From Candidatus Woesearchaeota archaeon (GTDB lineage: Archaea > Nanobdellota > Nanobdellia > Pacearchaeales > GW2011-AR1), in assembly GCA_964527365.1 (NCBI GenBank), contig CAZGQV010000001.1, positions 8,828 through 71,364 of the forward strand: a stretch of DNA of 62,537 nt, read 5' to 3'. The notes below the pieces were generated by a model. It did no database searches, was not told where the DNA came from, and worked only from the letters and a program-made list of their open reading frames with translations. Numbering within the stretch: position 1 is the first letter of the stretch; each line of letters begins with the position of its first letter. The translations under genes were made by a program, and so were the position numbers. Below, piece by piece: positions 30,644 to 59,967 of this stretch.

Positions 30644-30716
30644 AGCCCCGTAGTCTAGTGGTCAAGGATACTGGCCTTTGAAGCCAGTGACCCCGGTTCG
30701 AATCCGGGCGGGGCTA
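30644..30716 (+). tRNA. tRNA-Gln (TTG)
   Basis: Acceptor AGCCCCG/CGGGGCT, anticodon arm CTGGC-CTTTGAA-GCCAG, T-loop GTTCGAATC; no intron or CCA; TTATAAA about 24 nt upstream. Confidence 0.97.
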
Positions 30717-47786: not shown

Positions 47787-49625
47787 ATGTTTAAGGGGTG
47801 TGAAAATAAGAGGGGACAAGTGACTATTTTTATAATAATAGCTTTGGTTATTGTTGTTTTAGTTGGAGGTTATTTTGTTTTTAAGGATACGCTTCGAAAA
47901 CAAGTTATTCCAGAAAATATTTCTCCAATTCAATCAAGTTTTTTATCTTGTTTAGAAGAGGCAACATATACGGGAATTTCTTTAGTTGAAAGTACGGGCG
48001 GATATATTGATCTTCCAGATTTTAAACCAGGTTCTCGTTATCAACCATTTTCATCTCAATTAACTTTTGCAGGAATTGAAATTCCTTACTGGTATTATGT
48101 TTCTGGTTCTAATATTCCTAGAGAAAATGTCCCTTCTAAAAAAATGATTGAAGGAGAAATTGCAAAATTTGTTGAGGAAAGAATAATTTCTTGTAATTTG
48201 AATGATTATGTAGATCAAGGTTTTCAAATTTTTAGGGGGGAACCTAAAGCAGAAGTTATTATTAAAGATGAAACAGTAACGGTGAATTTAGAAATGGATT
48301 TATCTATGGAAAGAGATCTTGATACTTTCTTAATTAATGAACATGTAATTGAAGTTAAATCTCAATTGGGTGAACTTTATGGGGCTGCCATGGCTGTTTA
48401 TGAAGAAGAACAAAATAGTTTGTTTTTAGAAAATTATTCTGTTGATGTTTTGCGACTTTATGCTCCAGTTGATGGGGTTGAATTAACCTGTTCTCCATTA
48501 ACCTGGGGAGCAGAACAAGTTTTTCAAGAAATAAGGGAAGCTTTAGAAGTGAATATTTTATCTTTAAAGAATATTGGTGGTAAAAAAGATTATTTTTTAG
48601 TTGAAAATTTACCTACTAATGTTAAAGTTAATTTTGTGACTTCACAAACTTGGCCAAATTATTTGGAAGTGAATCCCACTGAGGGAAGTTTATTGATTTC
48701 TAAACCTGTGGGGAATCAAAATGGGTTGGGTATTTTAGGATTTTGTTATGTCCCCTACCATTATGTTTACAATGTTCGTTATCCCGTTTTAGCTCAAGTC
48801 TCAAAAGGAGATGAAGTATTCCAATTTCCAATGAGTGTGGCAATTGAAGGAAATGTTCCAAGAAAAGCAAAAGAAGGTGTTTCTATTGCTCCCGAAATTA
48901 TTGATTTATGTTCGGATAAAAACACTTTAATTACTGTTAATGTTTTTGATACAAATCTTGAGTCCATTGATGCAGAAATTTCTTATGAATGTTTTGGATC
49001 TACTTGTGAAATTGGAAAGACTGTTAATGGTGAATTGAAAGACCTTTTACCCCAATGTGCTAACGGTGATTTAATTATCAAATCGGAAGGTTATCGTGAT
49101 TTGAGGCTTATGTATTCTAGTGTTAATCCTGGAAGCAGCGTTGCTGTTTTATATCGGGAATACGAAAAAGAAATTTCATTAACTTTGGAAAATCAACCTT
49201 TTTCTAAAAAAGTAATAATTAGTTTTATTGGGGAGGAAGATACTCAAACTCTTATTTATCCGGAAAACAATAAAGTGAAGTTGAGTGAAGGAAATTATGA
49301 GATTCAAATTACAATTTATGGGGAATCAAGTATTAGTTTTGGTGAGACTGTTCAAGAACAATGTGTGACTATTCCAAGCACAGGTGTTGGAAGTTTGATT
49401 GGACTTGAAAAAACAGAATGTTTTGATATTGTATTTCCTGAACAAGATATTAGTGATGTTTTAATTGGGGGAGGAACTATTGATTATTTCTTTTTAGATT
49501 CAGAATTGGATGGGGAGGGAAGGATTTTAATTAATTCCCCTGGACTAAATATTCCAAAAACATTAGAAGAATTACAACAAAACTATTTACTCTTTGAAGT
49601 GAGTGAATTGGAGGTGAATTTATGA
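47787..49625 (+). CDS. Large pilin-like surface protein with class III signal peptide
   Basis: NKRG/QVTIFIIIALVIV; scattered Cys; overlaps next start (ATGA). Confidence 0.82.
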   Translation: MFKGCENKRGQVTIFIIIALVIVVLVGGYFVFKDTLRKQVIPENISPIQSSFLSCLEEATYTGISLVESTGGYIDLPDFKPGSRYQPFSSQLTFAGIEIPYWYYVSGSNIPRENVPSKKMIEGEIAKFVEERIISCNLNDYVDQGFQIFRGEPKAEVIIKDETVTVNLEMDLSMERDLDTFLINEHVIEVKSQLGELYGAAMAVYEEEQNSLFLENYSVDVLRLYAPVDGVELTCSPLTWGAEQVFQEIREALEVNILSLKNIGGKKDYFLVENLPTNVKVNFVTSQTWPNYLEVNPTEGSLLISKPVGNQNGLGILGFCYVPYHYVYNVRYPVLAQVSKGDEVFQFPMSVAIEGNVPRKAKEGVSIAPEIIDLCSDKNTLITVNVFDTNLESIDAEISYECFGSTCEIGKTVNGELKDLLPQCANGDLIIKSEGYRDLRLMYSSVNPGSSVAVLYREYEKEISLTLENQPFSKKVIISFIGEEDTQTLIYPENNKVKLSEGNYEIQITIYGESSISFGETVQEQCVTIPSTGVGSLIGLEKTECFDIVFPEQDISDVLIGGGTIDYFFLDSELDGEGRILINSPGLNIPKTLEELQQNYLLFEVSELEVNL

Positions 49626-52600
49626 GATTAAATAATAAATTTCTTTTTGGAATTTTATTAGTTTTTATTTTATTAATTGGACTTGGTTCAGCGTATATGA
49701 GTTCGGATTCTAAATTTATTGAATCTAGAACCGGGGTTTTTCAAATGGATGAATTAATGTCTTTTAATACAGATATGTGTCAGGAAGGAACAGATTTTGT
49801 TGTTCAAATTCCTCTTTTGGGTTGTACGCCAGCAGTAGTTAGAAGTGATTTACTTGAAGAACAGGATGTGCCAGTATTTTGCGAATTGAGTGCAATTAAA
49901 ATTAATCCTTTGGTAAATATTGAAGCAATAGATTCTATTAATTTTGCTGGAAGCATATATCCTCCCGAAGTTAGAACAATTGGTTTTCATCCTAGTTATT
50001 CTGCACTTGGAGAAAATAGAAAATTGAATAACATGATGTGGGATAATATTGGTTATGCAGTTATTTGGTTAAGGCAACAAAAAAATGAATCCGCTTTAAT
50101 AAATTGTAAGAAGGAAGGATTAAGTGAAATTTGCCGAGTTAATGGAACTTTAAGTGCAAAAATTAGGTACGATTTGGAAGGAGCTTTTGGTTTGAGACGT
50201 CATTCATTTTATCTTCCTGCAATGAGTGATTCTGAATTTAGTTCTCGATATGGACAATATGCTTTTTTTGATAGAAAAGGGTTTTTGAGAGCAGAAAATG
50301 TAGATAACACTGGTGCTTCAATTGTAATATATTCTGGAAGAAATGAAAATCTTGTTGGAATGAGTTCTTCAGGACAAAATGATAAACAAAAAGTTGCTCA
50401 ATTAAATTTGGATGTTGGGGAAACTTCAGGGGATATGTTTTTACCAGGGTTTGATTGTTTAGCAACGGTTAAATTTCGTTTAGATGGAATTGAATCTCCT
50501 GATGCGAGAGCAAAATTACTTATTAATTCTGAATCAATTGAATTAAAGAAAGGAGAAACTTTTTTAGAAAATAAATGTAAAGTTGTTGATCTTGAAAAAA
50601 TTGGTTTGAATCAAGTTGTTAAATTAAATTGTAATGACGATGAAAGAATGGGAACTTTTTCTTTAAGAATTACACCCAGTATTAATTTGAGCGTTAATGG
50701 AGTTTCTAAAAATTATAAAGTTGGAGAGAAAATTTTTAATACAACTGAGGGAAAATATGTCTATTTAGCTTACGTTTCCACCAAAAGTGTGGATGGTTTT
50801 GAAACAGGAAATCCATTGGATCTTGGAGCTTATCTTATTGCTATTCCTAAAAATGTTCCTGTTTTGGGAGATTCTGAATTAAGCCAAGCAGCTAATTTGT
50901 TTGATAGTTTGACTTTAGAAGAAGGAAATTTTGAAGATATTGCGAGTCTTTTTTCTGGAACAATTTCAAATTTTTGGTATTGGATGCAAGCTGGATCAAA
51001 TTTTAAGTATGTTCATTTTAATAAGGGAATAAAATTTGATGATAAGGAAATAGAAATTTTAGGTTTTGGAGAGGCAGGAAATGTCTTTTTAGAAGAGGTG
51101 TCTTCTGAGTATTATACTTCTGCATTGAGTGAGTATGATCTTGTTTCAAATAGTTTTTCTAATGAGAAATATGATGATAAAACTTACCAAGCAGAGATTA
51201 GTTTGGGTGAAAGGTCTTTATATGGGAAAATTAATTTGGCAAATGCATTACATCAAAAAAGTGATGTAAGGATTTTTTGCGAAGAATTTATGGGTTCTTA
51301 TTCTGAGACTAAACTTGATTTATCAATTTGCGAGGATTTAGAAAAGATGGCGAATACAGATATTTCTACAAAAGATGTTTTAATTGATGGGAATTGGAAG
51401 AGGATTTCTTTCGAAAGAATTTATGAACCTTCTTATGAAGATTATGGGATTGAAATTAATGTTCGGAGTAAAGACGGAGCCACAAATGAAGATTATAAAA
51501 TGAAAAAAGATTCTACAATTCTTTTGACAGATTTTATTAAAGAAAATCATGTTTTTATGGTTGAGTCTTCTTTGGAAGTTAATGTATTACATATAAAATA
51601 TTCTAATGGTGGGTGGATTTGGACACCAGATAATCAAAATTGGATGAGTGTATCAAAATTAATTATTTCTGTAGGAGAATCATCTGGTAAGTCGCTTTCG
51701 GCAAAAAATCAGGAATTGTTTACTTCAATAAAAGATACTGATTTTAAAACTGGAAGTAAAATTCTTTTAAGGGCACAAGGGACATTGGATTCAATAAAAT
51801 TAGTTGAAGTTCATGAGGATGAAGCAGTTCTTGAATTTAATTTATATAATAAATCAAAAATTCAAACCACATATGATTTTTTAGGAAGCAAAAAAAATGT
51901 TCTGGAAAAAGGAGTTCAAGTAAGTTTTGGAAGTGATTATATTTTTACTTTAAAGAAAGCTAATATCGAACAATTAGCCAAGGTTTCAGTTATTCCAAAT
52001 ATTAATTATGCTGGGAGTGAAGTTAATTTTTCTTTTAATATTGGTGTTGAAAAAAGAGCTATTCAGTTATCTCCAGAAAAAGCACAAAATAGGGTTGATA
52101 AATTAAATAAAACAATTGAAGATTGGAGAAAGAGGTCAGAGTCTTTAGGTGATGTTGTTCAAACAATGAAAACTGCTTGTTTGGGAGTTGGTGCTGCTTT
52201 AACTGTTAAGAATTTAATTGGGGGAGCTGGGGGAAAAACAATTGCCCGAGAAGATGTGATGTATGGTTCTGGAGGTTGGTATGAAGAATGCGCGGACAAG
52301 AAAATTGGCGATGTAACTTATAGTAGTGAAGAAGATTGTCTTTTCAAAAATGCAGATAAAATTGATGCAGAGGTTAATCAAATAACTGCTGCAATTAATA
52401 AACAAAATAGTGAAATTAAACAAATACAATCTCCTTATACTGAAGAAAAATTGTTAGGCCAAAATGTTGTAGATACTGCAAAATTTATTGGAGATTATTC
52501 TATAAAAGTTAATGAAAGTTTGAATTGGATTAAAGGGGCAGATGTATATGAAGGGGAGAAAGAAATAAAAACTTTAGATAATGTTCAAAAAGTTTTAGAT

Positions 52601-55600
52601 GGGGAGAACTGGGAAAGTGGAATTTATAGTGTAGAACAAGCAAAAAAAATTGAATTATATTCTGAGTTATTAAAGGAAGATCCAGAAAATGAGGCATATA
52701 AACAGAGGTTACTGAAAGCGTTAACAGATGTTGGAGTAAATAGTGAGAAACATTTGGCTTTGCAAAATTTGCAGAATAATGTTGTTAATTCTGGTTTAGA
52801 AAAAAGTATTGTTAGAATTTATTCTGGTGAAGGTGCAAAAACAGAAATTTATGATGGAGATGTGGTTCCAGCAACAGATTTTGGTTTAATGCCCGTGGGT
52901 AAACCGATACAATCAATTTATGTTGATGGTTCACTTCATTATGTTATTTTAAATGTAACAAAAGAGAACAAATATTTTATCTGGAAAGTATATAATGAAA
53001 GTAAGTTGGAGGTTTCAAAAGGTAAATCAGATATAATTAAAAGTAAATATGATTATTTTCAAAAATATGATTCTAAAAGTTATCACAATGCTTATGCAAA
53101 GGATGCAGAACCAAAAGTGAAATATTATGAAAATGATCCTTACAAAGGACTTCCAGCTTTGGTGCCTTTTGACCGAATAAATGGATGGTATGTTTACATT
53201 AAACAAACAATTCCAACTGGAAGTACAATTAGAGCATATGATGATTCTGGAAAAGTAAATAGTTTTTGGTTATGTAATGTTGGACAAAATGGATTAGAAC
53301 AATTTGATAATAATTTGGGAGATGATATTTGTCAAATGATTAATCTTGGAACTGGTCAACCGTATAATCAATTTCCTGGTTTGAAAACTTCTGAGGCTAA
53401 AGAATTGGTTGATGATGCACAAAAAGCAATTTATGAATCATCTAGACTGTATGGCGAGGGAGTTAAGAAAGCAACAATTTTAAATGAACAATTTGAAGTT
53501 GGTAGTCCAGCACTTGATATTCCTGGAATTAAATGTACTGATTATATGTCTCCTAAAGATTGTAAACTTTTATTCAATGTTTGTGATCCTGTTATTTGTC
53601 CAAATAGTCGATGTGATTTTGGTGGAGCATATCCTGTTCCCGACGTGATTCAATCTGGAATTATTGGAAGTATAGCTTTATGTTTACCAAATTTTAATGA
53701 AGGTATTTATGTCCCAGTTTGTTTGACTGGTGTTAAAGCTGGAATTGATGGTTATTTATCTATTGCTCAAGCTTATCAAGATTGTTTGGTTCATAATTTG
53801 GAAACTGGCGAAACTATTGGGGTGTGTGATGAGATTCATAGTATTTATTTATGTGAATTTTTCTGGAGACAAGCTTTTCCTTTGGCTAAACTTGCTATTC
53901 CAAAATTAATGGGGATTTTAACTGGACAAAATAGCCGGGGAGGGGGAGAATATATGGGCATAGAAGCAGCTTGGGAAAATGCTAAAAATTCTATTAGTTA
54001 TTTTACACAATTTTATGCTACAAATTCTTACAAAGCGTTTAAAGCAAGGAGTACTGAAGAGATTGGAAGTGCTGCTTGTGGAAGTTTTGTTTCTGTCGCT
54101 TACCCTAATGGCCAGGGAGTTTTGGATGTTTTAACAGAATCTGATAGCCCCCCACAATTTAATGCAAAATTTGATGCAATTCCCTTTACAACAACGACGG
54201 TTCCTCCAATTAATCAGTATAAGGTCTTTTATCATATTTACGCTGGTAATGACCGTGGAGCTTATTTTAAAGTATATTTGAGGGGGGATCCTGGAGGATC
54301 TTATTTTCAAGGAACTGGTTTTGGAAAAAGTGTTGCTTCAGGTTATATTGCTAAGGGAGAATATGCAAGTGAAACGGTTGATTTTACTGCTCCAGAAGGA
54401 TATAGAGAATTATGTGTTGTTGTGAATGATCAGGAAGAATGTGGTTTTGCCCAAGTAACTAGTAATTTTGCACTTGATTATATTAAGGATCAATATATTA
54501 AGAATCAGGCAACAAATGAGGATATTAAAACTGAAGAAGAATGTATTTCTGGAACTCCAAATGTTTATAGTTTATTGAACCCCAATATCCAAGAGGGGGT
54601 TGATAGTTTAATTGATCCTGCAATTTATGAAAAGGGGATAATTCGAATTTGTGCAACGGATAGTCCTGGAAGTGGGAGTGATGTTTTTGATGGAAAAGAA
54701 GGCAGCCGATGGGAAGAAGTAGGTTATTGTGGAAATGAAAAAATGAGGTGTTGGATTGATACAGAAAGTATTAAGGACGCTGTTGAATTTGAAACAACTT
54801 ATAATCAATCTATTACAGAATTAGAAGGAGATGTTAGTGAGTTTTTGAAAGATAATAATTATATGACTCCTGAAAATTTTTCTTTGTTTTTAGAAAAGTT
54901 AAAAGCGGAAAAGGATGCAACAAAAAATATTGAATCTATTAATGGAATTTTTGAAAAAATATTCATGAATAATCAAAATGGTTATTTGCATTATTTGCTT
55001 GGGGGATTTTATGGGGAACTTGCTAATATTTTACATAGTAAAAAAGTAGTAGATTCTAAAATGTCTCCTTCAAATCTTAGAGAAAAAATTATTGAATATG
55101 CAGAATTAAAAGTTGGAAAAGATTGTGGTGAAGATTGTTATGCTTCTGTTAAGGCAATTTATGATGAATTGGGAATTAATGCCCAATGTGTTTATTCAAT
55201 TTCTTCCTCTACTGAGTTAAGTCAACCTCTTTGTTCAAAATGTGGTTGTGATAAAAATGAGGATGGGAATTGTGTGAATTGTCCCCGTGAACAATATGAA
55301 TTAAAGTCGGCCGATTTAATTCAAGTTTATAATGCTAATGAAGTTTCATCCACGGGCGGACATAATTTTATTTTTGAAAGTTGGAAAGATTCAAAAAATT
55401 ATATCGCAAATATTTTTAGCCAAAATTATGATACTCGACTTCTTGAAAAAAAAGAATATGAAATTTCTCCAATTTATCGTCCTGTAACTGTTATTTGGGA
55501 ACCAGAACTTAAAGGTTATGGGGAAAGTTGTAATGAAGGTGTTGAAGGAACGTGTTTGAGTACTATCTTAGATAAAGATGGATGTACAACTAAATTTGAA

Positions 55601-58600
55601 CCTAAATTTTGTGAAGGTCCAACTCATGTTCAATGTTGTTTGGCTGAGGAAAAAGATGAATTTTCTGATTTTGAAAAATCTTTAGATTTAGTGAATCCAA
55701 TTTTGGAATTAGATAATGTCTGTTACAATTTTTTAGGGGGAGATTGGAAATGGACAAAAGAATGTGATCTTGCTAGAGAAGGATATAAATCAATTGGGTA
55801 TGTGGGGGGAGTTAATATTGTCCAAGCTAAATGGTTAGACACAAATGTTTTTAAAAATCCTTATGGTTCTGATCCTACTGTGAATTCAAAGGAAATTATT
55901 TTATTATTGGAGAGTAAGAAATCTTTTGATGAAGGATTGGATTTATTGATTAATCGTGCAGTGGATTCAAGAAAAGTTTTGAGTACTTCCTTTGTTGAAA
56001 TGAATAGAAATAAAATATTTGAATTGACTGGATTTAAAGATGTTGAAATAGTATATTTTTATTATCAAAATGATGCATGGTATTGGAGTCCAGACAAATT
56101 AGATTCAACAGAGGGTGGTTGGATATTAATTAATGAAGCGGGTGTTCGGGGTGGAAAAATTTCTACAAATATTTTAGGATCAATTGTGAATTTTGCTTCT
56201 TTTGATTTTTTTCCAGACATAGATGTAACAACCTTGCTTTTAGGTGAGGAAGATTTTATTGAATTATTTGAGAAGAAGGATTTTAAGGAAGGTTCAAAAT
56301 TACTTTTTTTTGTAAATATGGATAATTTAGAAGATGTTATTTATGGGTTGGGGAGAAATGTTGTTCCCAAACAAGACGTGGTTGTGGGGGAATTGATTAC
56401 TTTGGAGGAAGCAATGAAGAAAATACTTTTGCTGGAAGGAGATTATTCTGACAATAAAAATAAATTGTTAATTGATAATATGTATAAATCTGGAATTTTG
56501 AGTGAGGAAGAATATTGTGATGTGGCTGGGAAAGATATCAATTCTAAGAGTGCTTGGAGCAATACGTGGAATGTTGAAGAGGATATGGATTATGTTAAGG
56601 AAATTTTAATTCAAAAGAGTTTAGAAAAATATAATCAAAAGTGGATTGTATCTGCCATTTTATTGAAGTTAAATTTAATTGAAAAAGGAAATTATTTTGA
56701 TAACAATGTTTTGATAAATGTTTGGAAAGATCAAGGGCTTTTAGAAGAAGAAGAATATGCTAAGATTAAGGAGAACCCCTCTGATGATAGGATTGTTTAC
56801 AATTTGATAAAATATTTTGAGGGAAGAAAAGATTTGACTTATCCAGCGGTTTCAGGAGAAAGTTGTGTTATTAATCCTTCGAAGAGAAATATTAAAACAA
56901 CAATTAATTATTTAGAATCTCAGGAAGTAGATGTTTCTATTGTTGATAAGGAAGTTGAACAAATTTATCAGAGAGAAATTACTAGAGAAGAAGGATATAA
57001 TCCTCAAGAAAGTACTATTTCAAAAATTGAGAGGTTGGAAGAGGAAAGGGTTGATTTAACATCAATTGAAAATAAAATAGATTCAATTATTGTTGCAGAA
57101 CGTATTTGTATACAAGAGAATGTTTTTGAAGAAGAAACAGTTCCAGAAGAAACAATCTTAGAAGAAATTACTATTTCTGATAAAGTAAAAATTTTACAAA
57201 ATTATTATCAAAATTCTTTGAAATTATCTGGGAAATATTCTGAAGGAGCAATAATGGATTTTGTTGAAGATTTAAAATCCGAGAGAATATTATATCCTGT
57301 TGAATATGATGATATTAGGGGGGTGATTACTAGAAATGAAGATATGAATTATGTTCAAAGGCTTTTGGCAGCTAAATTAGCAAAGATAAAAGCTGTTTCA
57401 ACTTATGGGAAAAGAACTTTATCTATTTCAGAAAGAGATTCAATTTTTGATAATTGGATTCCTTCTCAAGATTATTTAGGATCAGTTCCCCCAGCAAAAT
57501 GTGATATGTGTAAATCTGGAACATTTGATTCATGTAGTCTTGAAGAATGTTATGCCATTTCAGTTTTTGGGGGATTAGATTGTGCTTTTTACGAGGGATA
57601 TTTTTCTAATTCTTGTGAAAAACAAAATTATTTTTTTGGTGATTTAATTGTAATTGAACAGGAAGAAGTTTTGGTAGAAGAGGAAGAAGAAATAATTCAA
57701 GTTGGAATTGCTAAAGTTTATCAAAATGAATTAAATATTTTTCAATCTTTTGTTGATTCAAATGGGTTTAATTTTGAAGAAGAATTTGACAATGTTGTGA
57801 TAAAATCAAATCATTTTGATAAATATACAATTAATAATAAAAATTTTGTTGATTTATCTGGGCTTTCGGAATTAACCTTTTTAGAAGAATTAAATTTACA
57901 AAATAATAAAATTATGAATCTTTCACCCTTAAGAAACTTAAATAATTTAATTTATTTGAATGTTGAGAAAAATTGTTTACAAGATGAAAATGAACTTAAC
58001 TTTTATTCTCAAAAACTTAAAGAGAGTTTTCTTTATGGTCAGAATCCTAGGTCTGATTGTGAGGAGGAAATAGAAGTTTGTGAAATTATTCCCTCCTTAT
58101 ATGAAATAATTGAAGATGATGGTCTTAGTTGGAATGAAAAAGTTGCAGATTCTACAAATTATTTTTTAGGTAAACCCGTTCCTAATGCTAACAAGGATAA
58201 TTGTTTTACTTCTGCAAATGCTATTTATTTTGCAGTAGGTTTTGGAACAACCTGTAAATATTCTGACCTTGTTGGAAAAAATTATCAAATTAGATCTAAC
58301 ACAATAATTACTAAATCGTCTGGAATATTTGTAGTAAATCCTTCTGCATGTTCAAAAGCGGGAGGGAAAATTGATTTAAGTCAAGAAGAAAAATTAAATT
58401 TATTGAAACAAGGAGACATGGTAGATTTAGTATATGGCGGGCATTTACAACACACAGTTATTTTTAATGGTTGGGAAAATAAGGGAAATTATGATGCAAA
58501 TTTGGTTGATTGGAATGGAGGTTCTTCTGGAAACAAAATATATAGGGAATTTAGCGCAAATTTAGCAGATGATGAAACTCCAGTATATCTTATTCGTGGA

Positions 58601-58621
58601 CCTTCTCCTTTGAGTTCCTAA
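49622..58621 (+). CDS. Giant (2999 aa) secreted surface protein; Cys-rich core, two papain-like domains, LRRs
   Basis: Signal peptide; uninterrupted ORF; C..H motifs at codons 1839/1914 and 2861/2944; LRR at about 57850-57980. Confidence 0.85.
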   Translation: MRLNNKFLFGILLVFILLIGLGSAYMSSDSKFIESRTGVFQMDELMSFNTDMCQEGTDFVVQIPLLGCTPAVVRSDLLEEQDVPVFCELSAIKINPLVNIEAIDSINFAGSIYPPEVRTIGFHPSYSALGENRKLNNMMWDNIGYAVIWLRQQKNESALINCKKEGLSEICRVNGTLSAKIRYDLEGAFGLRRHSFYLPAMSDSEFSSRYGQYAFFDRKGFLRAENVDNTGASIVIYSGRNENLVGMSSSGQNDKQKVAQLNLDVGETSGDMFLPGFDCLATVKFRLDGIESPDARAKLLINSESIELKKGETFLENKCKVVDLEKIGLNQVVKLNCNDDERMGTFSLRITPSINLSVNGVSKNYKVGEKIFNTTEGKYVYLAYVSTKSVDGFETGNPLDLGAYLIAIPKNVPVLGDSELSQAANLFDSLTLEEGNFEDIASLFSGTISNFWYWMQAGSNFKYVHFNKGIKFDDKEIEILGFGEAGNVFLEEVSSEYYTSALSEYDLVSNSFSNEKYDDKTYQAEISLGERSLYGKINLANALHQKSDVRIFCEEFMGSYSETKLDLSICEDLEKMANTDISTKDVLIDGNWKRISFERIYEPSYEDYGIEINVRSKDGATNEDYKMKKDSTILLTDFIKENHVFMVESSLEVNVLHIKYSNGGWIWTPDNQNWMSVSKLIISVGESSGKSLSAKNQELFTSIKDTDFKTGSKILLRAQGTLDSIKLVEVHEDEAVLEFNLYNKSKIQTTYDFLGSKKNVLEKGVQVSFGSDYIFTLKKANIEQLAKVSVIPNINYAGSEVNFSFNIGVEKRAIQLSPEKAQNRVDKLNKTIEDWRKRSESLGDVVQTMKTACLGVGAALTVKNLIGGAGGKTIAREDVMYGSGGWYEECADKKIGDVTYSSEEDCLFKNADKIDAEVNQITAAINKQNSEIKQIQSPYTEEKLLGQNVVDTAKFIGDYSIKVNESLNWIKGADVYEGEKEIKTLDNVQKVLDGENWESGIYSVEQAKKIELYSELLKEDPENEAYKQRLLKALTDVGVNSEKHLALQNLQNNVVNSGLEKSIVRIYSGEGAKTEIYDGDVVPATDFGLMPVGKPIQSIYVDGSLHYVILNVTKENKYFIWKVYNESKLEVSKGKSDIIKSKYDYFQKYDSKSYHNAYAKDAEPKVKYYENDPYKGLPALVPFDRINGWYVYIKQTIPTGSTIRAYDDSGKVNSFWLCNVGQNGLEQFDNNLGDDICQMINLGTGQPYNQFPGLKTSEAKELVDDAQKAIYESSRLYGEGVKKATILNEQFEVGSPALDIPGIKCTDYMSPKDCKLLFNVCDPVICPNSRCDFGGAYPVPDVIQSGIIGSIALCLPNFNEGIYVPVCLTGVKAGIDGYLSIAQAYQDCLVHNLETGETIGVCDEIHSIYLCEFFWRQAFPLAKLAIPKLMGILTGQNSRGGGEYMGIEAAWENAKNSISYFTQFYATNSYKAFKARSTEEIGSAACGSFVSVAYPNGQGVLDVLTESDSPPQFNAKFDAIPFTTTTVPPINQYKVFYHIYAGNDRGAYFKVYLRGDPGGSYFQGTGFGKSVASGYIAKGEYASETVDFTAPEGYRELCVVVNDQEECGFAQVTSNFALDYIKDQYIKNQATNEDIKTEEECISGTPNVYSLLNPNIQEGVDSLIDPAIYEKGIIRICATDSPGSGSDVFDGKEGSRWEEVGYCGNEKMRCWIDTESIKDAVEFETTYNQSITELEGDVSEFLKDNNYMTPENFSLFLEKLKAEKDATKNIESINGIFEKIFMNNQNGYLHYLLGGFYGELANILHSKKVVDSKMSPSNLREKIIEYAELKVGKDCGEDCYASVKAIYDELGINAQCVYSISSSTELSQPLCSKCGCDKNEDGNCVNCPREQYELKSADLIQVYNANEVSSTGGHNFIFESWKDSKNYIANIFSQNYDTRLLEKKEYEISPIYRPVTVIWEPELKGYGESCNEGVEGTCLSTILDKDGCTTKFEPKFCEGPTHVQCCLAEEKDEFSDFEKSLDLVNPILELDNVCYNFLGGDWKWTKECDLAREGYKSIGYVGGVNIVQAKWLDTNVFKNPYGSDPTVNSKEIILLLESKKSFDEGLDLLINRAVDSRKVLSTSFVEMNRNKIFELTGFKDVEIVYFYYQNDAWYWSPDKLDSTEGGWILINEAGVRGGKISTNILGSIVNFASFDFFPDIDVTTLLLGEEDFIELFEKKDFKEGSKLLFFVNMDNLEDVIYGLGRNVVPKQDVVVGELITLEEAMKKILLLEGDYSDNKNKLLIDNMYKSGILSEEEYCDVAGKDINSKSAWSNTWNVEEDMDYVKEILIQKSLEKYNQKWIVSAILLKLNLIEKGNYFDNNVLINVWKDQGLLEEEEYAKIKENPSDDRIVYNLIKYFEGRKDLTYPAVSGESCVINPSKRNIKTTINYLESQEVDVSIVDKEVEQIYQREITREEGYNPQESTISKIERLEEERVDLTSIENKIDSIIVAERICIQENVFEEETVPEETILEEITISDKVKILQNYYQNSLKLSGKYSEGAIMDFVEDLKSERILYPVEYDDIRGVITRNEDMNYVQRLLAAKLAKIKAVSTYGKRTLSISERDSIFDNWIPSQDYLGSVPPAKCDMCKSGTFDSCSLEECYAISVFGGLDCAFYEGYFSNSCEKQNYFFGDLIVIEQEEVLVEEEEEIIQVGIAKVYQNELNIFQSFVDSNGFNFEEEFDNVVIKSNHFDKYTINNKNFVDLSGLSELTFLEELNLQNNKIMNLSPLRNLNNLIYLNVEKNCLQDENELNFYSQKLKESFLYGQNPRSDCEEEIEVCEIIPSLYEIIEDDGLSWNEKVADSTNYFLGKPVPNANKDNCFTSANAIYFAVGFGTTCKYSDLVGKNYQIRSNTIITKSSGIFVVNPSACSKAGGKIDLSQEEKLNLLKQGDMVDLVYGGHLQHTVIFNGWENKGNYDANLVDWNGGSSGNKIYREFSANLADDETPVYLIRGPSPLSS

Positions 58622-58748
58622 ATTATTTATTTAAAAATATGTAAAAGAGCAATTTTTACTTCGTGAAATCTTCTTTAAATTTATGTTGTTTGCTTATTTG
58701 AAATTTCAAAAGATGTTTGGAATTTGAACAAATCCTGTTAAAAAAACA

Positions 58749-58832
58749 TGCAAGGGACAGGATTTGAACCTGCGTAAGCATTACACTACTGGAGCCTAAA
58801 TCCAGCCCGTTTGACCACTCCGGCACCCCTGC
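58749..58832 (-). tRNA. tRNA-Leu (TAG)
   Basis: Acceptor GCAGGGG/CCCTTGC, anticodon arm CTGGA-TTTAGGC-TCCAG, long variable arm, GGTTCAAATCC. Confidence 0.96.
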
Positions 58833-58840
58833 ACATATTT

Positions 58841-58931
58841 GTGGTCAAATGGTTTATCGTTAGGTGTGAAGTCAGAGACTTTACGCCTGGCCGAATGCAA
58901 ATGAGAGCCTGACCACTCCGGCACCCCCGCA
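58841..58931 (-). other. Extra copy of the tRNA-Leu 5' end plus structured spacer
   Basis: 58910-58931 matches 58812-58833 at 21/22 nt; spacer has a 12-bp hairpin (58862-58888) and an inverted copy of the D-loop (58841-58852). Confidence 0.75.
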
Positions 58932-59022
58932 TAGGATAATAAATTGAGAAACTAAGGGTATAAAAATGTTTAGAATTTATTTTTCTGAGTTGTTATGAAA
59001 TAATATTTTGTATGAGAAAAAG

Positions 59023-59967
59023 TTATTCTCCTTTAGCAGCCTTTTTCTTCTCTTTATTTTCAGCTTCTTTTTGTTTGATTTTATCTTCTAATTTTAGCCT
59101 ATCAATTAGTTCTTTGTATCTATTTCTAATTGTAACTTCTGTAATTCCCGCAATATCTGCAACTTCTCTTTGAGTTTTCTTTTCATCATTCATTAAAGCA
59201 GCCACATAAAGTGCTGCTGCTGCAATTCCTGCTGGGCCCCTTCCCGAAGTCAATTCAACTTCGTGTGCTTTATCTAAGATATCCAATGCATCATTTTGTG
59301 TTGCTGGAGATAAATTTAATACTGAAGAAAATCTTGAAATATAATCTTTAGGAGAAGATTGTTTAACTTTTATTTTCAATTTTCTAATAATGAATCTATA
59401 AGTTCTTCCAATTTCTTTTCTTTCAACATCAGAAGCTGTTGCCATCTCATCAAGTGTTCTTGGAATGTTGTATGATCTACAAGCGGCGTATAAACAAGCC
59501 GCTATTACTGATTCCATTGAACGTCCTCTAACTAATCCTCTTTGTAAGACATAATTATAAATTCTTGATGCTTCATCTTTTACAACGTTTGGTAAATTCA
59601 AATAAGAAGCAATAACTCTTAATTCTGCCATTGCAAGTCTTAAATTCCTTTCAATAGAAGTTGAAACTCTTTCTTGCCATTTCTTTAATCTTAAAAATTT
59701 TCTTGTTTGTTTTGGTTCTAACCTGTAAATATCTGAAATTTCTCCAACATTTGTTGTTAATCCCTTGTCGAATTTTTGCATAGAAATTGGAGCTCCTCCA
59801 CGTCCTTTTTTCTCTCCTTTATCAAATTTACCAGATAAGTCAATTCCTGTATCAACCATTTTGTCTTCCACTACAAGACCACAGTCGTTACAAATTACTT
59901 CTCCAAGGTTAGAATCAAAAGTTAAATTAATTCCCCCACACTCTGGACACGCACGAATATTTGACAT
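59023..59967 (-). CDS. tfb: Transcription initiation factor IIB
   Basis: Zn ribbon CPECG..CNDCG, ERNLRLA, GLVRGRS, LTSGRGP, EVTIRNRYKEL. Confidence 0.97.
   Translation of the reverse strand: MSNIRACPECGGINLTFDSNLGEVICNDCGLVVEDKMVDTGIDLSGKFDKGEKKGRGGAPISMQKFDKGLTTNVGEISDIYRLEPKQTRKFLRLKKWQERVSTSIERNLRLAMAELRVIASYLNLPNVVKDEASRIYNYVLQRGLVRGRSMESVIAACLYAACRSYNIPRTLDEMATASDVERKEIGRTYRFIIRKLKIKVKQSSPKDYISRFSSVLNLSPATQNDALDILDKAHEVELTSGRGPAGIAAAALYVAALMNDEKKTQREVADIAGITEVTIRNRYKELIDRLKLEDKIKQKEAENKEKKKAAKGE

Follow-up and report, generated by a model that had tools for sequence, protein, structure and literature searches.

The tRNA-Leu(UAG) gene described here probably carries the scar of a target-duplicating insertion that is now transcribed as a leader, one member of a recurrent class of small, apparently mobile insertions at tRNA gene ends. 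Comparison of the locus with its relatives establishes, at the level of sequence, that a short DNA segment was inserted at the 5' end of the gene and is bounded by a direct repeat of 21-22 nt, in which the upstream arm is a dead 5' fragment at the ancestral gene start and the downstream arm is part of the intact tRNA. The same comparisons establish a Pace/Woesearchaeota class of recurrent, ORF-less insertions of 35-240 nt at tRNA 5' and 3' ends, bounded by a repeat of the target's terminal 13-24 nt and carrying, beside the functional tRNA end, an inverted copy of part of that repeat. We find the class more interesting than the single locus, which is most likely an old insertion, fixed and harmless, the hairpin of which is retained so that the tRNA folds correctly.

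The insertion lies on the minus strand of the window, by which we mean the whole 62,537-nt stretch of DNA analysed, with a G+C content of 29%. Upstream of it stands the gene for transcription factor B (TFB; 59023..59967, minus strand), an ORF with TFIIB and Zn-ribbon Pfam domains, whose relatives come from Pacearchaeota/Woesearchaeota metagenome-assembled genomes with a GTDB placement in Nanoarchaeota. TFB is the conserved upstream neighbour of tRNA-Leu(UAG), and the TFB-to-tRNA-Leu order is found in most of 80 relatives. The other neighbours are core genes, encoding the ribosomal proteins S8e and S3Ae, an LSm protein, GINS and phosphoglycerate mutase, together with an RNase Z-like metallo-beta-lactamase. 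No mobile-element genes (integrase, transposase) occur in the neighbouring 25 kb, and there is no ORF between the repeats.

The structure is real. Contigs from three independent salt-lake DNA runs in Logan span it with 0 differences, and four independent ENA/JGI assemblies with an identical TFB carry it unchanged except for one SNP, at 58875 in the hairpin loop, which is the sole population SNP. An assembly artefact, against which an earlier note on this DNA had advised checking read coverage, is thereby ruled out.

The extra copy, GCGGGGGTGCCGGAGTGGTCA, comprises tRNA positions 1-21 and forms the upstream arm of the direct repeat (58910..58930, minus strand): positions 58930-58910 repeat the tRNA start at 58832-58812, and the only difference is indeed the single acceptor-stem base that had been noted before, at position 3, where the copy has G and the tRNA has A. 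With position -1 counted, the repeat is 22 nt long and 95% identical. A search for the 21-mer pattern with up to 3 mismatches gives 2 matches in the window, against 0 in 100 shuffles. Between the extra copy and tRNA +1 lies the inserted spacer of 77 nt (58833..58909, minus strand), and the insertion, that is, the spacer plus the repeat of tRNA positions 1-21, measures 98 nt in the window and 103 nt in the relative L002.

Conservation in relatives, which had been proposed as a check, gave a divided answer. Homologues of the window spacer were found in L002 and its twin L081 only, at the same site, while the site is empty in L001, L013 and L087, the closest relatives that have no extra copy. In these three, the promoter AATTCTAAACCTTTTTATACC...ATTATC..AT directly adjoins tRNA +1, whereas in the window and L002 the homologous promoter adjoins the extra copy instead. 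Because the homologous promoter adjoins tRNA +1 in the empty-site relatives, the extra copy marks the ancestral gene start.

The downstream copy, to judge from its fit to the 3' strand, is the one that belongs to the working tRNA. The intact tRNA-Leu(UAG) occupies 58749..58832 on the minus strand; its presence 98 nt after the copy, claimed in the earlier note, is borne out by calls from ARAGORN (58833-58748) and Rfam (55.4 bits over the full model), with the two copies 98 nt apart. When introns are allowed, ARAGORN calls the downstream gene only, and the cloverleaf is the minimum-energy fold of 58749-58832 taken alone. The downstream copy forms an A3-U70 pair; the upstream copy joined to the tRNA body would give G3:U70, which is the alanine identity pair. 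The L002 upstream copy differs from its tRNA at positions 2, 3 and 7 and misfits the 3' strand, and in L037, L039 and L026 the misfit base is likewise in the upstream copy. An Rfam search extended to E values of 10 finds nothing in the extra copy or the spacer, and the elements of relatives are likewise without an Rfam match.

These observations bear on whether the upstream copy could be spliced to a tRNA body. Split tRNA genes are known from Nanoarchaeum equitans, and archaea also have non-canonical bulge-helix-bulge introns. The earlier note could not build a clean bulge-helix-bulge, and our exhaustive search, strict and relaxed and covering seven loci, likewise gave no valid tRNA product and no candidate joining equivalent positions of the two copies; the two 3-nt bulges and 4-bp helix with flanking helices that define an archaeal bulge-helix-bulge intron are not present. 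It is therefore very unlikely that the upstream copy is the true 5' exon, with the spacer and downstream copy forming a D-loop intron removed by the splicing endonuclease. In favour of such cis-splicing, CCGG (positions 10-13) occurs in both copies and could make a 4-bp central helix with cuts after position 15, the family B copy (see below) ends exactly at position 15, and the computed minimum-energy fold takes the upstream copy as acceptor strand. However, this CCGG palindrome is the sole possible central helix and has no flanking helices; those needed for a bulge-helix-bulge or its relaxed form are absent in all seven loci. Moreover, the product would have G3:U70 in the window, would misfit the 3' strand at three positions in L002 and would bear U15 in family A. 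The same enumeration goes against the related suggestion that the locus is a relic of an intron-containing copy.

Trans-splicing, with the upstream copy serving as the 5' part of a split tRNA-Leu isoacceptor and the 3' part encoded elsewhere in the genome, is extremely improbable. The copy does have a proper promoter, and its GCGGGGG would pair perfectly with a CCCCCGC 3' end; the locus thus shares with the split tRNAs of Nanoarchaeum a D-arm disruption in a DPANN archaeon and a 5' piece with its own promoter. Unlike them, it has an intact gene in cis, no bulge-helix-bulge and no partner piece in the window: the orphan 3' piece ending CCCCCGC that the earlier note proposed to look for does not occur in the 62-kb window, nor does any sequence complementary to the spacer. 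No terminator separates the copy from the intact tRNA-Leu, which starts 98 nt downstream of the copy start in the same transcription unit; the copy sits where the whole gene starts in relatives, and the acceptor part of the L002 copy has drifted further. With no valid bulge-helix-bulge and no 3' piece in the window, both the split-tRNA and the intron readings are therefore unsupported. Among the four options of the earlier note, which also included a regulatory leader or antisense RNA, the att scar comes closest to the evidence.

The promoter appears to have stayed at the old gene start. The TATA-like element reported at 58966-58959 is present there on the minus strand as TTTTTATA, and homology to the promoter of the empty-site relatives identifies it as the TATA box of the ancestral tRNA-Leu promoter. 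It now lies 28 nt upstream of the extra copy, placing the TATA start at -36, compared with -31 to -33 at the other three tRNA genes of the window; no TATA box is found at the corresponding distance before the real tRNA-Leu. The leader contains no oligo-T (no run of five or more T), and the first oligo-T past the promoter is a T7 run just past the tRNA (58740..58746, minus strand), a likely archaeal terminator. Because there is no promoter before the downstream copy and no terminator in the leader, transcription would proceed from the old promoter through the fragment and the 77-nt spacer, yielding a single unit some 190 nt long. Its first ~98 nt, the copy and spacer, thus most likely form a transcribed leader, which RNase P would remove by cutting at tRNA +1. 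Almost all Archaea are reported to have the RNase P ribonucleoprotein (PMC6380272). The RNA runs searched contain related tRNAs only, and not the leader RNA; one metatranscriptome contig shows a family A-like leader on a related tRNA, at low depth and with DNA carry-over possible.

The spacer has no ORF, no T-run of at least 5 and no Rfam match, and its most conspicuous features are a hairpin and a block antisense to the tRNA. Fold computation places the hairpin at 58862..58888 (minus strand), with a TCT loop. The 12-bp hairpin described earlier can be made out as 12 stacked positions, 10 of them Watson-Crick and 2 C.A on the minus strand, the latter becoming G.U on the plus strand. The antisense block CCATTTGACCAC (58841..58852, minus strand) shows the reported complementarity to the tRNA D-arm, 11/12 against positions 15-26, and is joined to tRNA +1 by a single-stranded linker of 8 nt, AAATATGT (58833..58840, minus strand). 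It has an alternative partner in GTGGTCAG of the upstream copy (58916-58909), and pairing there would close the leader into a stem-loop. The closing arms are GUGGUCAG (leader positions 15-22) and UUGACCAC, forming a helix of 58916-58909 with 58848-58841.

Taken alone, the leader folds into this closed stem-loop at -26.6 kcal/mol, and a modular precursor consisting of the leader stem-loop and the cloverleaf sums to about -55 kcal/mol. The global minimum of the whole precursor, at -61.8 kcal/mol, is not this modular fold: in it, the upstream copy takes the place of the tRNA's own acceptor strand, and the antisense block pairs into the D arm. We therefore consider, as a model, that the spacer is a self-contained stem-loop, with the closing helix outside and the 12-position hairpin inside, which would fold before the tRNA is transcribed and so shield tRNA folding from the antisense block and the false 5' end. 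If the leader closed while transcription was still under way, the global-minimum misfold would be averted, and it is this closure that selection would maintain.

The strand on which the mismatches pair better is not the one this model uses. The observation that the mismatches become G.U pairs only if the plus strand is transcribed was correct, since each C.A mismatch of the tRNA strand corresponds to a G.U pair on the plus strand, and for this reason the plus strand folds better (z -3.8 vs -1.2 on the minus strand). The C.A mismatches thus favour the opposite strand, and the leader model gives no account of that. That the functional species is a plus-strand (antisense) RNA or a single-stranded DNA form is nonetheless highly improbable. 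Besides the z scores, it has in its favour that the three hairpin mismatches of the window and L002 and the block mismatch are all C.A on the tRNA strand and G.U on the opposite one. However, the mismatches number only four (about p=0.06 if both strands are equally likely), family B has its G.U on the sense strand, other families do not share the asymmetry as a rule, and the plus-strand form has no promoter support.

Comparison with L002 indicates which parts of the insertion are held constant. Third codon positions of TFB, taken as a neutral proxy, are 0.70-0.72 identical between the window and L002; the promoter reaches 0.82, and the 5' part of the spacer 0.57 (shuffled 0.45). Over the block AAACCATTTGACCACAAA and its flank, 19/19 positions are identical, for which the chance against the neutral proxy is about 0.001, and 14/14 are identical over positions 8-21 of the upstream copy. 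The L002 hairpin has a different sequence with its pairing kept: 6/12 positions have changed on both sides, and the C.A at the fourth position from the base is common to both. On these alignments, the closing arms and the hairpin are under constraint while the remaining spacer drifts, a pattern that would follow from the insulating role proposed above for the leader stem-loop. The divergence of the window and L002 spacers, taken by itself, is fitted equally well by old vertical inheritance with loss as by transfer. A search of metagenome contigs with the junction pattern of this spacer family (family C below) returned L002's twin only, and the nearest TFB relatives provide no further relatives of this spacer, showing instead empty sites, 3' repeats or lost gene order.

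The constraint could also reflect a positive function rather than damage limitation, if the leader had been co-opted as a functional structured RNA, acting as a leader in processing or regulation or, once released, as a small RNA that mimics the tRNA 5' end. The earlier suggestion of a regulatory leader or antisense RNA fares partly well in this respect, in that the leader is probably transcribed and some of its segments change less than the neutral rate predicts; its weak side is the absence of the leader from the RNA runs searched. Co-option would explain the conserved 19/19 block, copy positions 8-21 and compensated hairpin, and it accords with the recurrence of antisense blocks beside the tRNA ends of relatives and with upstream copies in families A and B that track each host's acceptor stem. 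However, close relatives manage without the insertion, the spacers of different families are unrelated in sequence, the copy's acceptor part is decaying in both the window and L002, and Rfam offers no match. We regard co-option as unlikely.

The locus is one of many of its kind. Our census covered 177 tRNA genes with sufficient flanks, drawn from the window and 80 species-representative loci, and scored a repeat when a terminal copy of at least 13 nt lay within 250 nt (upstream for 5' repeats, downstream for 3' repeats). By this measure, a 5' repeat is present at 14 of the 177 genes and a 3' repeat at 22. Where a repeat is present, the tRNA-adjacent flank is more complementary to the tRNA end (p 1.2e-4 for 5' and 1e-6 for 3' repeats), and in nearly all cases the repeat-complementary segment lies 7-9 nt from the functional tRNA end; most other 5' elements have a linker of 7-9 nt, compared with 8 nt in the window. 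Most other 5' repeats are 14-15 nt long, vs 21-22 nt in the window.

The 5' spacers at tRNA-Leu fall into several unrelated families: family A of about 45 nt (L039, L053, L065 and L071), family B of 85-122 nt (L011, L026, L035 and L068), family C consisting of the window and L002, and the singletons L007 and L037. The same layout is seen at tRNA-Arg and tRNA-Met. Elements at 3' ends open with a run rich in T and a T-loop block that is antisense or palindromic, and end with a copy that spans the T loop to the discriminator base plus one. We found no description of such mini-insertions in DPANN in the literature.

Several lines of evidence point to movement of the class and to target-derived repeats. 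On the TFB tree, families A and B have a scattered distribution in which close relatives lack them, and between the sister genomes L037 and L049 one tRNA shows two differences, a 48-nt insertion at its 5' end and another insertion at its 3' end. Tandem units are present in L007, L016 and L068. Family A spacers are 65-80% identical, vs about 50% at host synonymous sites. In each of the eight hosts of families A and B, the upstream copy begins with seven bases identical to the acceptor strand of that host, and a mismatch to the tRNA, one D-stem base in each case, occurs in L026 and L039 only. Furthermore, a 3' family with the core CAGGAT.AAAACCCGCAGGTGGTTTT occurs at tRNA-Cys (L016) as well as tRNA-Leu (L022, L025 and L042); its core contains a Leu-type T-stem relic, and its repeats match each target. 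It is because of this patchy distribution, the tandem arrays and the occurrence of one family at two tRNA species that we consider the class to move and its repeats to be target-derived, as far as the genomes compared can indicate.

Small non-autonomous mobile elements may stand behind the class, inserted either with an att duplication of the integrase type or through a long target duplication at a staggered cut. A fixed-attP integrase would not easily yield one family at tRNA-Cys and tRNA-Leu with matched repeats; such repeats would be expected if a staggered cut duplicated the target or if the att site were homogenised with host sequence. More specifically, we tentatively put forward the possibility of miniature elements that target the 5' and 3' ends of Pace/Woesearchaeota tRNA genes, with a 13-24-nt target duplication and an adjacent inverted copy. 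If this were true, such elements would stack in tandem and occasionally carry small gene cassettes, and their RNA hairpins would join the pre-tRNA leader and come under selection there; together they would form an insertion system for tRNA ends. The window spacer has no second copy in the 62-kb window or in the other data searched, and family C is confined to two lineages, so the evidence for movement comes from other families and not from this particular element. None of three patterns sought in viral contigs gave a match: the junction pattern of family C, the motif of family B and that of the 3' elements.

A 1.2-kb cassette is present at L036 and L006, inverted between the two loci and nested with a mini-element. 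No recombinases were found among its proteins.

Alternatively, the structure could be a local repair product, in which template switches at a break or stalled fork in a highly transcribed tRNA gene would leave tRNA segments duplicated in direct and in inverted orientation, with filler DNA added. The motif GTGGTCA does occur in a direct-inverted-direct arrangement, the spacers of other families also hold short sense and antisense tRNA-derived pieces, and mobility genes are absent. However, most of the spacer is not templated from nearby sequence, and local repair cannot give conserved spacer families in distant hosts or one family at different tRNA genes. We consider this origin improbable.

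Among known systems, the nearest kind is the tRNA gene fragment left by integration, and the window behaves like an att-type or target-duplication insertion to which we assign no named family. Such fragments have been described for PYG1 of Pyrococcus yayanosii (PMC9897764) and in Caldiarchaeum subterraneum, in which a tRNA-Thr 5' fragment lies 1.8 kb upstream of the intact gene with a recombinase-bearing element between them (PMC3293823). Like these, the window combines a partial and a complete tRNA copy with a repeat that reaches exactly to the gene terminus, its complete copy is functional, and relatives have an empty site; the Caldiarchaeum 5' fragment even has the same polarity. The differences are equally clear. 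Integration fragments have 1.8-23 kb between their repeats, compared with 77 nt and no integrase or any gene in the window, and the PYG1 repeat is 44 nt long vs 21 nt here. Unlike integration fragments, the window insert is a conserved stem-loop, and the class has target-derived repeats at several tRNAs. The att scar offered in the earlier note thus holds for the direct terminal repeat and the empty site in relatives, but not for a recombinase-bearing element between the repeats.

Other mobile elements share some of these features. Casposons produce target-site duplications of 14-15 bp at tRNA 3' ends (PMC6977970). They resemble the class in targeting tRNA gene ends, in their long target duplication, which matches the 14-15 nt of most 5' repeats in relatives, and in the possibility of tandem insertion. 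They differ in that their duplication overlaps only the last tRNA bases and extends beyond, while class repeats lie inside the tRNA, and in having terminal inverted repeats, Cas1 and a polymerase; no polymerase is present at the window insertion. A casposon-type insertion was rejected for the window, where the repeat is 21-22 nt, no clear terminal inverted repeats are present and no Cas1 occurs in the scanned region. MITEs and CIMEs, the latter being att-flanked, cis-mobilizable remnants of integrative elements, are small, non-coding, structured, non-autonomous, repeat-flanked and patchy in presence. The present class is likewise small, non-coding, structured, repeat-flanked and patchy; unlike MITEs and CIMEs, it is specific to tRNA termini, and its inverted repeat runs from element to target and not between element ends.

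A partial tRNA copy is usually taken to be the outer end of a large integrated virus or plasmid, whereas here the whole insert is a 77-nt hairpin, and the layout recurs at roughly 1/5 of the sampled tRNA genes in a DPANN clade. If the insertions are mobile, they would represent a new kind of very small element on tRNA gene ends that does not destroy the gene, and would offer a live example of tRNA genes gaining leaders, fragments and perhaps introns. Split and intron-bearing tRNAs of archaea have been proposed to originate through such acquisition (PMC3293823). Moreover, fragments of this type can mislead tRNA annotation and split-tRNA searches in metagenome-assembled genomes.

The 3' side of the window tRNA also carries an antisense sequence. 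The block ACAGGATTTG (58729..58738, minus strand), 10 nt past the tRNA 3' end, is an antisense T-loop/T-stem copy with 10/10 complementarity. It has no 3' direct repeat after it and mirrors the antisense D-loop block on the 5' side, and the same kind of antisense T-arm block begins the 3' elements in relatives.

Copies of tRNA 3' ends recur downstream of tRNA genes in Pacearchaeota/Woesearchaeota relatives of the window (loci numbered L; L001-L080, L086 and L093-L096 were covered for 3' copies). About 22 of 177 tRNA genes, for Leu, Arg and Cys, have their own last 13-24 nt copied 35-240 nt downstream, for example at L002:5431-5530, L004:5388-5485 and L043:5879-5980. The copy starts at the T loop and ends one position past the discriminator base. 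A short non-coding element separates it from the tRNA and opens with a stretch rich in T and a block resembling the T arm (GGATTCGAACC, for instance). One family of these 3' elements, with the core CAGGAT.AAAACCCGCAGGTGGTTTT, is found at tRNA-Cys in one genome (L016:210-321) and at tRNA-Leu in three others (L025:2434-2510; L042:4935-5004; L022:4216-4350). The repeat of each member matches that member's own target, Cys or Leu, and the repeats are therefore target-derived; the same family standing at both tRNA species with target-matched repeats further means that the element moved between tRNA genes.

Two element-plus-repeat units stand in tandem behind one tRNA at L007:5174-5370, L016:190-321 and L068:5218-5400, those of L007 being nearly identical. 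A 1.2-kb cassette of two genes separates tRNA-Leu from its 3' copy at L036:5159-6379 and, in opposite orientation, at L006:3866-5119; it encodes one protein of 272-293 aa, with a weak nucleotidyltransferase signal, and a second of 81-113 aa. L036 additionally has a mini-element of 90 nt and one more repeat, its third, behind the cassette. In one close relative (L090:2750-3541), the usual place of tRNA-Leu behind TFB, its customary upstream neighbour gene, is taken by a gene for a DDE transposase and an ORF of 76 aa.

In the window itself, the minus-strand stretch at 58721-58738 begins 10 nt past the tRNA-Leu 3' end with ACAGGATTTG, which is antisense to the T loop and stem at 10/10 positions. 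Immediately after it stands TTCAAATTCC, similar to the T loop read in sense orientation. The pair looks like the two termini of a 3' element that has no interior and lacks a 3' repeat. Beyond this, a 2999-aa ORF on the plus strand (49622-58621) ends 127 nt from tRNA-Leu, on the opposite strand; a Pfam search with E values up to 0.001 gave no hit for it. Similarly giant ORFs occupy the same place in relatives, and one of them (L087) carries an SLT domain.

Interrupted tRNA genes are frequent in this clade: in these relatives, many genes for tRNA-Leu, -Arg and -Met contain a long intron (40-110 nt) at the canonical site in the anticodon loop (among others L068:5079-5216, L042:5005-5152, L042:8593-8747 and L068:902-1025).

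At all four window tRNA promoters (tRNA starts at 30644, 46257, 61878 and 58930), the TATA box starts 31-36 nt ahead of the mature 5' end, and (C/T)AT or ACT immediately precedes +1 downstream of it. The TATA-to-tRNA distance is the same in most relatives. Such spacing implies that tRNA leaders are naturally very short, and it sets the 98-nt leader of tRNA-Leu apart as exceptional. A metatranscriptome contig (X26) carries a related tRNA-Leu, aligned to 58749-58833, and extends 60 nt upstream into sequence resembling the leader of family A, a family of ~45-nt spacers at tRNA-Leu 5' ends (...GACCATCCGTCACTCAAAAAGA before +1). This contig hints that family A-like leaders are transcribed; its depth is low, and carried-over DNA may be its source. 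A further contig (X2), from a relative that shares the salt-lake sample, is an empty-site allele, without the insertion, that coexists there with the filled one: its TATA box lies ~24 nt from the tRNA start, 58838 is joined to 58957, and 19 different letters stand between TATA box and tRNA start.
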